This document shows, piece after piece, positions 21,746 through 26,603 of a stretch of 64,000 nt of DNA (positions are counted from its first letter, which is position 1; every line of letters starts with the position of its first letter). Under the pieces are notes generated by a model. That model had not been told where the DNA came from. It saw only the letters and a list, made by a program, of their open reading frames with translations, and searched no databases. The stretch lies in sequence record EU863409. One strand, 5' to 3'. A program made the translations under genes and the position numbers. The stretch comes from Escherichia phage JS10.

Positions 21746-21867
21746 CTTAATTCCTCGGTTGATAGCCTTATCGACTATCTTCCGAACTTCTCGTTTCTCG
21801 AGCCACCCTAATAATAGCAAGGCTCCGAAAGAGAATAATAACAAACCTATAAAAAGCAATAGAGGAC

Positions 21868-22761
21868 CTAGCATACTACGTCCTCATAACGTGGCATTTC
21901 GTATTCAGAATGAATATTGGCACCGAAATAAATGAATTCAGCCAGACCAGGATGGAATACTAAACCTGGGTTCTCATGATAAATGATATGTGGTCTTGAT
22001 TTCAGAATTTGATAATATTCAACCTTACTCGGTTTGAATTTAATAATCTCTACATCAGGACGATAGTCTTCGCGCTTAAATGAATCATTCGGGTCGGTGA
22101 TATAAAGACGAGCACCTTCAGCGGCAGCTTGGTCTACAACTCTTTCGAATTGATAGCACTTATCCGAAATACGGAATGGATGGAAAATACCATCAATTTT
22201 AATAGGCGCTAGACCTTCAGAGTAACGCTCAATTACTGCAGGATTAATTACCTTTTGGTCTACAAAAATCTTATCAGAGGATGCACCTCGTGACACCAGG
22301 ACGTCTTTCTGGCATTGATTCAGGACTGTAGTATAAAGTGAACGTTCAACCGAAGCCACATCAATATCAATGAACTCGTCGATATAATAACGAGGAACTT
22401 CAGGGTCCATTGTGATATTAAAGTTGAATTGTACAGTGTGAGCACCATCATAACCGGTGATATCGGTTACCAGTCCTGAGCAATCGTAGTATTCGATTAG
22501 TGAATCGACTACAAACTCATTTTCAGACCAGAAATGTTTACGGGTTTCATAAGCATTTTCTTTATACCAAAGTGGTACGAAATTCAGTTCTGGGAATAAT
22601 TCAATGCATTCTTTGATATCGCTCGAATTTCTAGGATAAGCCAGATAATCACCTGGACGAGCACGATTTAAATGGAGTTGAAAATTACCGTCCTTAAGGA
22701 CGGCATATTCACCTGTTTCGTAACTACGCATACTGAAAATAGGAACGATAAACAAACTCAT
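21868..22761 (-). CDS. hypothetical protein at the T4 beta-glucosyltransferase locus; candidate DNA-sugar transferase
   Basis: 297 aa; sits between uvsX and gene 42 where T4 has bgt, but does not resemble T4 bgt. Confidence 0.5.
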   Translation of the reverse strand: MSLFIVPIFSMRSYETGEYAVLKDGNFQLHLNRARPGDYLAYPRNSSDIKECIELFPELNFVPLWYKENAYETRKHFWSENEFVVDSLIEYYDCSGLVTDITGYDGAHTVQFNFNITMDPEVPRYYIDEFIDIDVASVERSLYTTVLNQCQKDVLVSRGASSDKIFVDQKVINPAVIERYSEGLAPIKIDGIFHPFRISDKCYQFERVVDQAAAEGARLYITDPNDSFKREDYRPDVEIIKFKPSKVEYYQILKSRPHIIYHENPGLVFHPGLAEFIYFGANIHSEYEMPRYEDVVC

Positions 22762-23456
22762 TTCAGGAAACCTCGGACGTAGTCAAAATCACGTTCAAAC
22801 ACGTGTGCACTTACCATGGTGTGAGAATATGTACCTAAACCGACACCACACTGTTCAGCAATAAATGCCATCAGTTTACCCTGCAGATAGAAATCCAGCT
22901 GCATAACAACAGCACAGTTTTGTGAACGCATATGGGTGTGTGCATACAAACGTCCGTCACGAATATAATACGTTACCGAATCGGTGCACGGATATTCTAA
23001 GGATTCGTCAGAATCAAGGAGGGCTTGGTCTTGTTCTTGGAGAATCTGGAACACAACTCTTCGCGAGTTAGCCTTTTCTTTAAGCTCTTTAAGTAGGGCT
23101 GGGAGTTGGGCCACAATTCGAGGTCCATAGAAAGTGTTGAAGTTTGCAGGCAATACGTCACTTTTCGGCTTATCAATGAACTTAGCAACATTAGGATATT
23201 CCTTAAATGCTTCGGCGGCGTCAGTACCACCAGAAATCATAAATTTCCAAAAGGATTCGGCATATTCATAACTAATACGATTGATACGTGGGTCGGTGAA
23301 TTTATAGGTGCTTGCATCCAGTACTTCTACAGAAGCAGAACCAATTTCATAACAACGTCCGATACGAGAATCAACTGCAAACTGTGGAGCTTCCAGGATT
23401 TCTTCGTTCATTTGTTTAAATGCATTTTCAAAACTAACAGCGGTAATGTGTTTCAT
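22758..23456 (-). CDS. 42: dCMP hydroxymethylase (thymidylate-synthase fold)
   Basis: 232 aa; NSRRVVFQ...THMRSQNCAVVMQLDFY...HVFERDF align with T4 gp42 blocks. Confidence 0.8.
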   Translation of the reverse strand: MKHITAVSFENAFKQMNEEILEAPQFAVDSRIGRCYEIGSASVEVLDASTYKFTDPRINRISYEYAESFWKFMISGGTDAAEAFKEYPNVAKFIDKPKSDVLPANFNTFYGPRIVAQLPALLKELKEKANSRRVVFQILQEQDQALLDSDESLEYPCTDSVTYYIRDGRLYAHTHMRSQNCAVVMQLDFYLQGKLMAFIAEQCGVGLGTYSHTMVSAHVFERDFDYVRGFLK

Positions 23457-23989
23457 TTATTCACCTTATTTTCAATATATTCGTTCAGACGTTTTAATTC
23501 TACCATATCAACATTAAGCAAATTATTATGGCCGTCATGATTTAAGATTTTAAACACGTTTTCAAAACATGTTTCGTATTGCCGGATAGTTAGGTTGAAC
23601 TCATCTTTGGTTAATTTAATAAGGTCGTCTTCGAAGTCTTCGTCTAATGGATTACGAGTTAAAATAACCTCGATAACGTTAAATTCGGATTTAAACCCTT
23701 TCCAATCTTCCAGTTCTACATAAGGGTCCATTTCACCACGAAGGAATCCTGAGTAAACAATATTACTTGGATAACCACGGTCAAGGATATAAACGAAATT
23801 AGGGTCTAAAAACTTATACAGAGTTTCAACTAAAGCCTTATCGTTATCGGTTCCTAATGAAATACACTTGCCATTAATCTTTTTAGGAAAATCAATAAGG
23901 CGGTATTTCTTATTGGATAACAGATTTTTAATTAAAGTGGACTTCCCGGAATTATCCGGGCCGTCTATAACAATGATTTTTGGATTCAT
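23453..23989 (-). CDS. P-loop kinase, thymidylate-kinase-like
   Basis: 178 aa; Walker A IVIDGPDNSGKST typical of Tmk/dNK-type kinases. Confidence 0.55.
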   Translation of the reverse strand: MNPKIIVIDGPDNSGKSTLIKNLLSNKKYRLIDFPKKINGKCISLGTDNDKALVETLYKFLDPNFVYILDRGYPSNIVYSGFLRGEMDPYVELEDWKGFKSEFNVIEVILTRNPLDEDFEDDLIKLTKDEFNLTIRQYETCFENVFKILNHDGHNNLLNVDMVELKRLNEYIENKVNK

Positions 23990-24384
23990 GGATGATAGGC
24001 CTTATAACTATCAAGAGTTCCTTCACGAACCATTTCTTTAAAGTGGTCAGGACGGATTGCTCGGTCATCGATGATAAAAGTATAACTCGGCTTGTGTGTA
24101 AGCAAATTGTGATATTTCAATCCAATTTTTTCAAGGTTCTTAACCAATGCAGGAACTACTTCAACCAAGATTCGACCTGGGCCACATGAAGTCATGCCAC
24201 GGGCGGTGAACAATGTAATCTCGTACCCTTCATCATAAAGCTTATTAATCATGGACACCATTTCGGTGTCCGGTTTAAAGTTCTCATAATCACGGTCATG
24301 GTTCCAAATCGTGATTGTGTTATCGATATCAAAACATAAGTGTGGCTTATTTTCTACTCGATGCGACATTAAATTTTCTTCCAT
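23986..24384 (-). CDS. HAD-superfamily phosphatase
   Basis: 132 aa; motif I CFDIDNTIT (DxDxT). Confidence 0.6.
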   Translation of the reverse strand: MEENLMSHRVENKPHLCFDIDNTITIWNHDRDYENFKPDTEMVSMINKLYDEGYEITLFTARGMTSCGPGRILVEVVPALVKNLEKIGLKYHNLLTHKPSYTFIIDDRAIRPDHFKEMVREGTLDSYKAYHP

Positions 24385-26042
24385 TGTTTGTGGAGTTCAG
24401 TAGAACCTGTAGGTTTATATTTTACACCAGTTTCCTGGTCAAGCAAAACCCACTTATCAGGACAACGAGTAATAATTTGGGCCGTAATAGGGTCACGAAC
24501 TTCATCGACAAATTCACCTGTAATAAGCTTACGCTTACGAGGATGCCGCTTCAGCAGCACACTCAGTTGGTACAAACCGTTATAATAAGCACCCAGAGCT
24601 TTCAGAGGGTTATTCTTAAAGTAACCTGCCAGAGCCATCCAAATAACAGCAATCCAGAGCTTGTGCTTAAATGTGCACATAGGGATATCGTCTAAAGGCA
24701 TAACCTTTTCGATATCAACGAATACACGAGTTCCGTTACGAGTTAATCCACCCCATAGAGGGTCTGAGTTAAATTTGTCATAGCCATCGATAGAATAAAG
24801 CACCTTAGCTTCATCATAAATCGCAGGGCCTTTAGAACTATTACCGAAATAACCGCGTGGGTCGATGATTTTAATATCACCTTCGTCCGACAGCATAATA
24901 TTACTGTAGTGCGGGTCACCATGAATAAGTTGGTACGGTTCTTTATGTTCAGACAGAATTTCTAGTGCATGGCGGAGAAGTTTTTCAGGGTCGCCTACTT
25001 TGAAATCGTTAACATGGGTAATGCCTTGTGGAGCAAAGCCTTCAATCAATCCGGCAATAGAAGCATTACGAATAAGGACCTTGTCCAATACTTCTTTCTT
25101 AACATCAGAATACCATTGCTCATCGGACGGGTTATCGATAGTTCCACCGAATGAACGTAATGCACTAATGACCTTATAAACCATGAGGACTTTAGTTTCT
25201 TTGGACATAAACCGGTAGGCATCTGCCATGGTCCGACCAAAGATACGTTCCATTTTAATGAATTCGCCTGGAGAAAAGTCTACAATGCTAGGAACGAATT
25301 CAGAATCAATAGAATTATACCAATTGATTTCTTTAGATTGAATTTCTTTACCTAAATCGTTAGTTGGTACTTTAATAGCCAGATTCTCGGTGAATTCTAA
25401 TTTATTAAATTCACGGTTAATTTCAGATTCTTCATGGGCCTTAGCCAGTTTCAATTTGTCACCGACATCAACTACAAAGTCCAGTTTACGTTCAGTCAAA
25501 TAGACCATTGAATCCAGGTTATCAGCAAGGTCTTCACCGTAATTAGAACGGTCGAAACCTGTCCAATTAGCCACCTGATACAAACCAACTACACCGCCAC
25601 CGGTACCAATTTCACGTAAGTACGGTTCTTCAAATGTAAAACGACAATCGGTTCCATAAGTATAGCAGTAGTCGTTACCCCACTCAACTTTATGACCTTC
25701 AGGAATGATGTCACACCAGTTAAACAAGACATTATGACCAATGATATCTTCGGCAATGCAATCGATAGCATGAGCTGAACCATTAGCAACATCAACGTTA
25801 CGAATAGTGAATTTAGGCTTATCACCAGTAATCATGTTAATGGATTTAATATAGCCTTTAACGAGGTCGTTAAATTTGCTGTGAATAACCAGAATAATTT
25901 CATCTGATTGGTTACTATACAAATCATACAAATGCTTTAATACTGTATGTTGTTTGTAGTTAACCAATACCTTCGGGATTTCGTTAGTAATTGGGTACAA
26001 ACGTGAGCCAAGACCTGCGCCTAAAATAACAACCTTTTTCAT
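24369..26042 (-). CDS. bifunctional sugar-1-phosphate nucleotidyltransferase / APH-fold sugar kinase
   Basis: N-terminus VVILGAGLGSRL (NTP-transferase G-x-G-x-R); C-terminus HGDPHYSNIML...IIDPRGYFG (APH/choline-kinase catalytic loop); start trimmed to ATG 26040-26042 with GAGGAA RBS. Confidence 0.65.
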   Translation of the reverse strand: MKKVVILGAGLGSRLYPITNEIPKVLVNYKQHTVLKHLYDLYSNQSDEIILVIHSKFNDLVKGYIKSINMITGDKPKFTIRNVDVANGSAHAIDCIAEDIIGHNVLFNWCDIIPEGHKVEWGNDYCYTYGTDCRFTFEEPYLREIGTGGGVVGLYQVANWTGFDRSNYGEDLADNLDSMVYLTERKLDFVVDVGDKLKLAKAHEESEINREFNKLEFTENLAIKVPTNDLGKEIQSKEINWYNSIDSEFVPSIVDFSPGEFIKMERIFGRTMADAYRFMSKETKVLMVYKVISALRSFGGTIDNPSDEQWYSDVKKEVLDKVLIRNASIAGLIEGFAPQGITHVNDFKVGDPEKLLRHALEILSEHKEPYQLIHGDPHYSNIMLSDEGDIKIIDPRGYFGNSSKGPAIYDEAKVLYSIDGYDKFNSDPLWGGLTRNGTRVFVDIEKVMPLDDIPMCTFKHKLWIAVIWMALAGYFKNNPLKALGAYYNGLYQLSVLLKRHPRKRKLITGEFVDEVRDPITAQIITRCPDKWVLLDQETGVKYKPTGSTELHKQWKKI

Positions 26043-26102
26043 TATCTGTTCCTCAAGTGAATGTAGGTACATTATACACTATTTTTAATAAATTTCTATT
26101 GC

Positions 26103-26603
26103 TTAAATCTTATCTTTACCGTATTCCATGCACTGTTCTACTGCAGCAGGCACTTTGGACTTAAGCTTGTTGATTTGTTTCTTATAATCACGAGCCTTAT
26201 CGAAGCTCTCGGTTTCAAGCATTTCGTAATAACGGGCCTCGTGGACGGAAATCTGTAGATTGATATGGTTTACACACATAGAATACAGTTTCTGCTTTTT
26301 GTACAAATCATCTTGGCGCTTCATTTCTGCCTGGTGTTTGGCTAGTACCGCTTCACGCTTAGACTCTTGTTCACGTTGGAATTCGATTTCCCTTTGAGCA
26401 TATTTTGCACAGTTATTACCGCATTGATTATTAGCTCGGGTATACACAAGTCCAGAACCAGCACGGAATTTCATTTCGCCGTCGAATTGTTTCTGTTCAG
26501 CTGCGATACGAGCTTTACCAACTTCATCAGCAGAAACTGCATCACCGTATTGGACTGCGCAACCTGATAGGAGCATACTCATTGCGATAATTAACTTTTT
26601 CAT
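26103..26603 (-). CDS. putative lipoprotein
   Basis: 166 aa; signal peptide with lipobox LSGC. Confidence 0.55.
   Translation of the reverse strand: MKKLIIAMSMLLSGCAVQYGDAVSADEVGKARIAAEQKQFDGEMKFRAGSGLVYTRANNQCGNNCAKYAQREIEFQREQESKREAVLAKHQAEMKRQDDLYKKQKLYSMCVNHINLQISVHEARYYEMLETESFDKARDYKKQINKLKSKVPAAVEQCMEYGKDKI

Follow-up and report, generated by a model that had tools for sequence, protein, structure and literature searches.

The 64,000-nucleotide stretch of Escherichia phage JS10 analysed here (sequence record EU863409, called the window below) codes on its minus strand, at positions 23453–23989, for a P-loop kinase of 178 amino acids with the fold of thymidylate kinase (Tmk), a member of the JS98 gp040/RB69 ORF045c family (PHROG 761). 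The protein is read here, with moderate confidence, as an active, compact nucleotide kinase of the 5-hydroxycytosine (5hoC) cassette of RB69- and JS98-type phages, which would phosphorylate 5-hydroxy-dCMP (5hodCMP) beside gp1, the phage deoxynucleoside monophosphate (dNMP) kinase. Its substrate is most likely 5hodCMP or a derivative, probably taken as the free deoxynucleotide. The kinase has the Tmk fold and intact catalytic motifs, is under purifying selection, is encoded within an operon and strictly co-occurs with the cytosine hydroxylase of the cassette, a thymidylate synthase (TS) homologue.

The kinase gene and protein

The open reading frame (ORF) lies exactly where the first-pass annotation of the sequence had placed it. 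It starts with MNPKIIVIDGPDNSGKST and is the third of five minus-strand genes arranged head to tail (24369–26072, 23986–24384, 23453–23989, 22758–23456 and 21868–22761), which in the order of transcription code for an AfhE-like UDP-arabinose enzyme, a HAD phosphatase, the kinase, the TS homologue (hydroxylase) and GT1, the putative first arabinosyltransferase. The ATG of the kinase gene shares an ATGA with the stop codon of the preceding HAD gene, its own stop codon shares another with the start codon of the TS homologue, and the operon from 26072 to 21868 is tight and translationally coupled. The kinase had been described as lying directly downstream of gene 42; with both genes on the minus strand, it is in fact transcribed upstream of the TS homologue. 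A scan for promoters and terminators was uninformative, the sites being no more frequent than in shuffled sequences.

Region 21800–26200 shares 98.6% identity with Escherichia phage JS98, a T4-like Dhakavirus, and about 50 further relatives match it at about 93–99% identity. The kinase itself is 100% identical to JS98 gp040, annotated as “thymidylate kinase; RB69 orf045c-like”, and to the proteins of JS98-like Dhakavirus phages, while its identity to the RB69-, DLP3- and CHI14-type proteins is 38–42% (tblastn). The tblastn search found homologues in 342 phage records, with T4-like genomes throughout among the matches listed. Relative to JS98-like phages, the ratio of nonsynonymous to synonymous substitution rates (dN/dS) is 0.04–0.08, similar to that of the neighbouring genes; the kinase gene is under strong purifying selection. 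A word-indexed search gathered 9 homologous proteins and a profile search 96; the conservation and profile work is based on 88 kinase homologues, among which 14 residues are invariant. The 342 records, the low dN/dS and these 14 residues together argue that the ORF is real and not a chance reading frame.

In QL01-like and IME341-like relatives (loci L006 and L007, 8001–8534) the kinase gene differs from the window copy by a synonymous divergence of 0.53–0.76, and the flanking TS, GT1 and AfhE genes differ by 0.27–0.35. The higher divergence of the kinase than of its flanks suggests mosaic exchange of this gene within the cassette, accompanied in L006 by exchange of the HAD gene.

The counterpart locus of T4 has the gene order 43, imm.1, imm, 42, beta-gt, segA, uvsX, and the kinase gene is not present there. 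From this order, the TS–glycosyltransferase (GT) pair fills the slot of 42 and beta-gt, and three genes are added upstream. Gene 1 lies elsewhere, as had been stated: a search of the window with a gp1 query gave no match, and gene 1 of JS98 is located at 73,517–74,278, outside the span of the window.

Single-sequence searches with the kinase (Pfam, NCBIfam and phmmer against the PDB) gave sub-threshold P-loop matches only; PF02223 scores 15.6 bits (cut-off 27) and TIGR00041 scores 18.3 (cut-off 83.25). PHROG 761, named “thymidylate kinase”, was matched at 1.5e-39. The 88-sequence profile is closest in the PDB to SPbeta YorR (3.6e-10) and aligns over the full length with thymidylate kinases, that of vaccinia (2v54) at 2.3e-8, and those of S. 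aureus and others more weakly. The AlphaFold2 model (pLDDT 92.9) shows the three-dimensional fold of Tmk, and thymidylate kinases are the best structural as well as profile matches, so the description as a Tmk-like P-loop kinase stands. A non-kinase P-loop family such as a clamp loader, which had been named as the contrary outcome, was considered and dropped, as none is found near the top of the profile or fold matches.

The Walker A motif quoted in the first-pass annotation is located in the N-terminus of the protein, G10-P-D12-N-S-G15-K16-S-T18 (23936–23962, minus strand, as for all segments of the kinase). All 88 homologues have K16 as well as D12, the counterpart of the P-loop Asp of Tmk in the alignment; conservation of G10, G15 and T18 is 90% or higher. 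The Tmk-type “DR” motif and the following helix, D70-R71-G-Y-P-S75-N76-I-V-Y79 (23753–23782), align with DRYAFSGVAY of vaccinia Tmk; D70, R71, S75, N76 and Y79 are invariant, although DR is followed by Gly and not by Tyr, His or Phe. Y79 is aligned to Tyr105/101 of Tmk, the tyrosine beside the 2' position. In Tmk the P-loop Asp contacts the 3'-OH and this Tyr acts as the gate for the 2'-deoxy sugar. A short LID-like segment, R112...F119-E-D121-D122-L-I124-K125 (23615–23656), corresponds in the alignment to the LID of vaccinia Tmk, with R112, F119, D121 and D122 invariant. The P-loop Asp, the DR motif and the basic residue of the LID are all present and, judged by the alignment, the catalytic set is intact.

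The part of Tmk that recognizes thymine appears to be missing. The profile alignment places a nine-residue deletion of the kinase opposite “anrwefasf” of vaccinia Tmk, and no equivalent was found in the sequence for the helix with the stacking Phe and the O4-binding Arg (F72 and R76 of the human enzyme). Taken together with the sub-threshold Tmk scores, the loss of the segment carrying this Arg points to a kinase not adapted to thymine, and the protein is probably an active deoxynucleotide kinase with another preference.

This bears on the name given to the protein in RefSeq and PHROG, “thymidylate kinase”. A genuine dTMP kinase, boosting the supply of dTTP during infection, would agree with the nature of the best structural and profile matches and with the Tmk-like P-loop Asp, DR motif and Tyr79. 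It is nevertheless an unlikely function, since the scores are far under the curated Tmk thresholds, the thymine-O4-binding Arg segment is missing in the alignment, and the gene is restricted to phages with a hydroxylase of the N169 type, described below (342 versus 344 records). Neither is the gene found at the T4 locus, though phages of the T4 type have an equal need for dTTP and gp1 phosphorylates dTMP.

Co-occurrence with the predicted hydroxylase and the proposed first transferase

The TS homologue (22758–23456, minus strand, 232 amino acids) matches the Pfam family Thymidylat_synt at 3.6e-13. It is 79.7% identical to its RB69 orthologue, ORF048c (gp48), and 25% identical to T4 gp42. Aligned to E. 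coli ThyA, it contains C146, N169 and D177 (MRSQN...D), where T4 gp42 has D169/D177. RB69 gp48 and DLP3 gp80 were shown to be flavin-dependent 5-hydroxy-dCMP synthases, for which the D169N change is diagnostic; the DNA of RB69 and DLP3 contains arabinosylated 5-hydroxycytosine, not hydroxymethylcytosine, and Dhakaviruses are among the predicted 5hoC producers (Lee et al., NAR 2026, PMC13326640). N169/D177 and the 80% identity to RB69 gp48 predict that the TS homologue of the window acts as a flavin-dependent 5-hydroxy-dCMP synthase and not as a dCMP hydroxymethylase. The neighbour of the kinase, taken for gene 42 in the first-pass annotation, is therefore not a gp42 orthologue. Its database labels vary between thymidylate synthase, dCMP hydroxymethylase and hypothetical protein.

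The distribution of the kinase follows that of this enzyme. In the phage collection the kinase occurs in 342 records and the TS homologue, counted at E ≤ 1e-30, in 344, and the counts per genus agree almost line by line. From IMG/VR, 80 loci were retrieved with the kinase profile. All kinases with an identity of 35% or more to the window protein and with enough flanking sequence have TS and GT1 as same-strand neighbours no further than about 2 kb away, and every TS beside them is of the N169/D177 type. Remoter kinases (24–36% identical) are mostly overlap-adjacent to a TS with D169/D177, the hydroxymethylase-type signature, by which these homologues are predicted to be folate-dependent hydroxymethylases. 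The reverse comparison, of 80 loci found with a TS profile and made without de-replication, gave a strong member of the kinase family in 40 of the 59 assessable N169/D177 loci, a weaker Tmk-like kinase in 13, and no kinase within 8 kb in 6, while no strong member was present in any of the 15 D169/D177 loci. A kinase supplying riboflavin or flavin mononucleotide (FMN), which the need of the hydroxylase for flavin had suggested, was dropped, as related kinases also pair with D169-type TS and the Tmk contacts to the deoxynucleotide are retained.

RB69-type and environmental phages have the genes as TS, GT1, kinase, the commonest order among the loci; JS98-type phages have them as kinase, TS, GT1. 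In loci L022–L032 TS, GT and kinase are retained, with no AfhE or HAD gene within 8 kb, and in RB69-like genomes the kinase is set apart from the sugar genes. A parallel is provided by Rhizobium phage RL38J1 of the Pootjesviridae (L084, MN549360, 17792–22227), which decorates 5hoC with galactose and glucose. There, TS (gp216), GT (gp215) and a Tmk-like protein (gp214), weakly similar to the kinase family, follow the RB69-type order, and a separate annotated dNMP kinase (gp219) is encoded 3 kb away; the arrangement with two kinases thus recurs in an unrelated phage family. Together, L022–L032 and RL38J1 indicate that the kinase tracks the hydroxylase–transferase core and not the sugar-activation genes.

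The second substrate proposed for the kinase in the first-pass annotation, a sugar intermediate, is disfavoured by these loci. A role in the sugar-nucleotide branch, either in UMP/UDP recycling or as a pentose or pentose-phosphate kinase feeding UDP-arabinose synthesis, could be drawn from the position of the window gene directly after those of the HAD phosphatase and the AfhE-like enzyme, and a sugar kinase was also raised for the cluster by Thomas et al. 2018. The arabinose-5-phosphate kinase step is, however, already given to the APH-type domain of AfhE, the kinase remains beside TS and GT in loci that show no AfhE or HAD gene over 8 kb, and it is separated from the sugar genes in RB69-like genomes. 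Furthermore, RL38J1, with other sugars, has a Tmk-like kinase in the same place, and the invariant Y79 and D12 align with the contacts of Tmk to the 2'-deoxyribose. The sugar-nucleotide branch is thus a highly improbable place for the enzyme.

The substrate of the kinase

Of the two substrates put forward in the first-pass annotation, a modified nucleotide remains the best reading, though hydroxymethyl-dCMP is not the one expected, given a neighbour with N169/D177 and 80% identity to the proven RB69 gp48. In the route that we favour, the TS homologue would make 5-hydroxy-dCMP, the kinase would convert it with ATP to the diphosphate, the host Ndk would add the third phosphate, and the resulting 5-hydroxy-dCTP would enter DNA through the phage polymerase. 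The dNMP kinase of the gp1 type, with its gene elsewhere in the genome, would be active alongside and partly overlap in function. 5hodCMP is a poor substrate of host kinases: TS alone left only traces of 5-hydroxydeoxycytidine (5hodC) in the DNA of E. coli (PMC13326640). The remote relative P0148 (L094, 268–1251), a fusion of the kinase with a TS domain carrying the D169/D177-type signature, is counted in favour of a 5hodCMP kinase as well.

Several observations weigh against this assignment. RB69 gp159, a kinase of the gp1 type, converts 5hodCMP to 5hodCDP in vitro, and gp159 and gp48 suffice for incorporation of 5hodC in E. coli (PMC13326640), so that a second 5hodCMP kinase looks redundant. 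RB69p045, DLP3_078 and RL38J1_214 are only labelled “Nucleotide kinase” from fold matches (PMC13326640), and the literature covered on the cluster reports no activity for any member of the kinase family; an assignment may already exist in He et al. 2026 (Nat Chem Biol) or Mahler et al. 2025, both beyond this coverage. The paper on Thanatos mentions no kinase, and a phage Tn-seq preprint in which essentiality data for the gene were sought contains none. The residue-level arguments on the substrate rest on alignment with Tmk sequences, and 6 of the 59 N169-type loci have no kinase within 8 kb. Lastly, the closest relatives from outside the T4-like phages (E values from 1e-13 to 1e-21) carry a C-terminal HhH-GPD DNA-glycosylase-like domain, a fusion suggestive of a function at or close to DNA. 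Nearly all phages of this kind nonetheless retain the additional, apparently redundant kinase, which is under strong purifying selection.

The fused proteins are of metagenomic origin: P0123 (L086, 8001–9074), P0121 (L087, 1446–2390) and P0128 (L088, 6205–7173). Their HhH-GPD domain has the conserved motif G-[LCV]-G-K-Y together with EP[LFM]DKEL, and their genes adjoin those of N169/D177 TS. The contigs contain either an FMN reductase, a SIS isomerase and an AfhE-like protein, as L086 does with an AfhE-like protein of 624 amino acids, or a GT4 transferase. A remoter relative, P0156 (L091, 8001–9035), combines the kinase with a UDG-superfamily domain; genes for a methyltransferase and a Gtf3-like glycosyltransferase come next. 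The host enzymes Nth and Nei excise 5-hydroxycytosine, and the HhH-GPD domain could be related to evasion of repair or to base flipping.

These fusions bring in the possibility that the protein acts at the level of DNA, as a kinase or nucleotide-dependent factor that would work on 5hoC in the polymer or aid the first arabinosyltransferase. The analogy is with the 5-hydroxymethyldeoxyuridine DNA kinases (5-HMUDKs), small P-loop kinases that co-localize with TS homologues and HhH glycosylase-fold enzymes in thymidine hypermodification (PMC5889632, PMC8989533), and it agrees with the HhH-GPD fusions beside N169 TS, with the UDG-like fusion and with the kinase gene most often adjoining that of the proposed DNA glycosyltransferase. 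On the other hand, an hhalign comparison of the kinase family with M6 gp54, the sole 5-HMUDK compared, covered only 30 columns of the P-loop, whereas Tmk was aligned over the full length, and M6 gp54 belongs to PHROG 800; membership in the 5-HMUDKs was rejected on this alignment. No gene for an HhH-fold enzyme of the aGPT-Pplase/AADT type was found in the window operon, but metagenomic members of the kinase family do carry a fused HhH-GPD-like domain. The residues aligned with the Tmk contacts to the deoxyribose 3'-OH, the 2' position and the 5'-phosphate are retained, and the window kinase is acidic (isoelectric point, pI, 5.06) and contains no DNA-binding domain. The virion DNA of RB69 and DLP3 was reported to contain arabosylated 5hoC only, with no mention of a phospho-base (PMC13326640), and an acceptor of glycosyl transfer from UDP-arabinose need not be phosphorylated. 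A role on polymeric DNA is, all in all, rather improbable.

The order of the genes raises a different possibility, in which GT1 would arabinosylate 5hodCMP, and the kinase would take the bulky arabinosyl-5-oxy-dCMP that gp1 may refuse. The commonest order, TS, GT, kinase, parallels such an order of reactions, and hydroxylase, transferase and kinase are inherited as a unit; both the gene order and the retention of a second kinase would be accounted for. The acidic nature of GT1 (pI 4.88), as opposed to the basic T4 beta-glucosyltransferase (pI 9.05), would fit as well, and the deletion in the base-binding helix could admit a C5 substituent. Single transferases gave no arabinosylation of 5hoC-DNA, leaving undecided whether the first step takes place on the mononucleotide or on DNA, although this negative in vitro result, for the DLP3 enzymes, was given as “data not shown”, and the later arabinosylations were demonstrated on DNA (Lee et al., PMC13326640). 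The HhH-GPD fusions, too, point to DNA, and the phage polymerase would have to accept arabinosylated dCTP. To our knowledge, every characterized phage DNA glycosylation is post-replicative. If arabinosyl-5-oxy-dCMP were nevertheless the substrate, dCTP would carry its sugar before the phage polymerase incorporates it, and this would be the first known pre-replicative route of glycosylation for phage DNA. We give such a route little chance, and phosphorylation of 5hodCMP itself remains the favoured function.

The family is already known. RefSeq names it “thymidylate kinase”, elsewhere it is listed as “nucleotide kinase”, and RB69p045 is listed as a putative kinase of the 5hoC cluster (PMC8056088, PMC13326640). 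The gene is thus a known but biochemically uncharacterized part of the cassette, and it was the neighbouring enzyme that had been mislabelled. The pathway to glycosylated 5-hydroxycytosine was worked out only in 2025–2026, and this modification decides how therapeutic phages of the RB69, JS98 and Acinetobacter types escape restriction, CRISPR and modification-dependent defences. Among the conserved genes of the cassette, that of the Tmk-like kinase is the sole one with no demonstrated activity in the literature covered. Knowledge of its substrate would complete the pathway and decide between the nucleotide and DNA as acceptor of the first sugar. For annotation, “thymidylate kinase”, “dCMP hydroxymethylase” and “phosphoheptose isomerase” all mislead at this locus.

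Neighbouring genes and comparison with known systems

GT1 (21868–22761, minus strand, 297 amino acids) is the orthologue of RB69 gp46:47, for which a role as the first arabinosyltransferase has been proposed (PMC13326640). It matches PHROG 3891 at 3.3e-159 and is annotated as RB69 orf047c-like; a Pfam search gave no match. Its gene adjoins that of the TS homologue in every related locus.

The protein encoded at 23986–24384 (minus strand, 132 amino acids) is similar to RB69 gp51 and AfhF. Weak Pfam HAD matches were found, together with matches to the capsule biosynthesis phosphatase TIGR01689 (1.3e-14) and to HAD-IIIA, which identify it, by sequence, as a HAD-type phosphatase and the name “phosphoheptose isomerase” (RefSeq, PHROG 1238) as a misnomer. 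The upstream gene (24369–26072, minus strand) codes for a predicted bifunctional protein of 567 amino acids, RB69 gp52:53- and AfhE-like, with a sugar-1-phosphate nucleotidyltransferase domain (Pfam NTP_transferase, 3.3e-8) and an APH-type kinase domain (1.2e-5), in PHROG 4098. By analogy with AfhE and AfhF of phage HY126, these two proteins would make UDP-arabinofuranose (PMC13326640). No SIS-domain arabinose-5-phosphate isomerase is detectable across the 64-kb window, whereas in loci of RB69, Acinetobacter and Pseudomonas phages (L012–L020, L024, L033 and L034) a SIS isomerase is encoded a few kb away from the cassette; for arabinose-5-phosphate, JS98-type phages may depend on the host KdsD or GutQ.

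Between the cassette and imm lies an ORF of 166 amino acids (26103–26603, minus strand), corresponding to JS98 orf43. It starts with MKKLIIAMSMLLSGC, which resembles a lipoprotein signal peptide with a lipobox. Its best Pfam match, at 16 bits, is below the cut-off, and no RB69 counterpart is annotated.

RB69 ORF045c (RB69p045, NP_861735), DLP3 gp78 and JS98 gp040 are of the same family as the window kinase. They share the matches to the Tmk fold and the cassette with the 5hodCMP synthase and the first transferase, and the window protein shows both the homology and the same-strand N169/D177 TS and GT1 that define the RB69 ORF045c type. The gene differs in its position, between phosphatase and hydroxylase in JS98-type phages and after the transferase in those of the RB69 type.

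With thymidylate kinases proper (vaccinia A48R, 2v54; S. aureus, 4dwj; human TMPK) the protein has in common the P-loop Asp, the DR motif, the Ser and Tyr of the following helix and the LID Arg. It is, however, only 12–21% identical to them and 25–35 residues shorter, has N76 in place of Gly, and its family possesses its own invariant block, F119-x-D121-D122 ... F131-N132, and a distribution tied to the cytosine hydroxylase. YorR of the B. subtilis SPbeta prophage (2axp/3kb2) has a similar GPD..K P-loop and DRF..SN.VY motif, but the match is limited to the N-terminal ~100 residues and YorR is itself uncharacterized.

The 5-HMUDKs (M6 gp54, ViI gp67/gp243) are likewise small phage P-loop kinases co-localized with TS homologues, and their pairing with aGPT-Pplase is echoed by the HhH glycosylase-fold fusions among the kinase relatives; they act, however, on a hydroxymethyl group in DNA and belong to a different PHROG. 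Neither in sequence nor as closest fold does the kinase resemble T4 gp1 (1dek), although its chemistry likely overlaps with that of T4 gp1 and RB69 gp159, the latter of which phosphorylates 5hodCMP.

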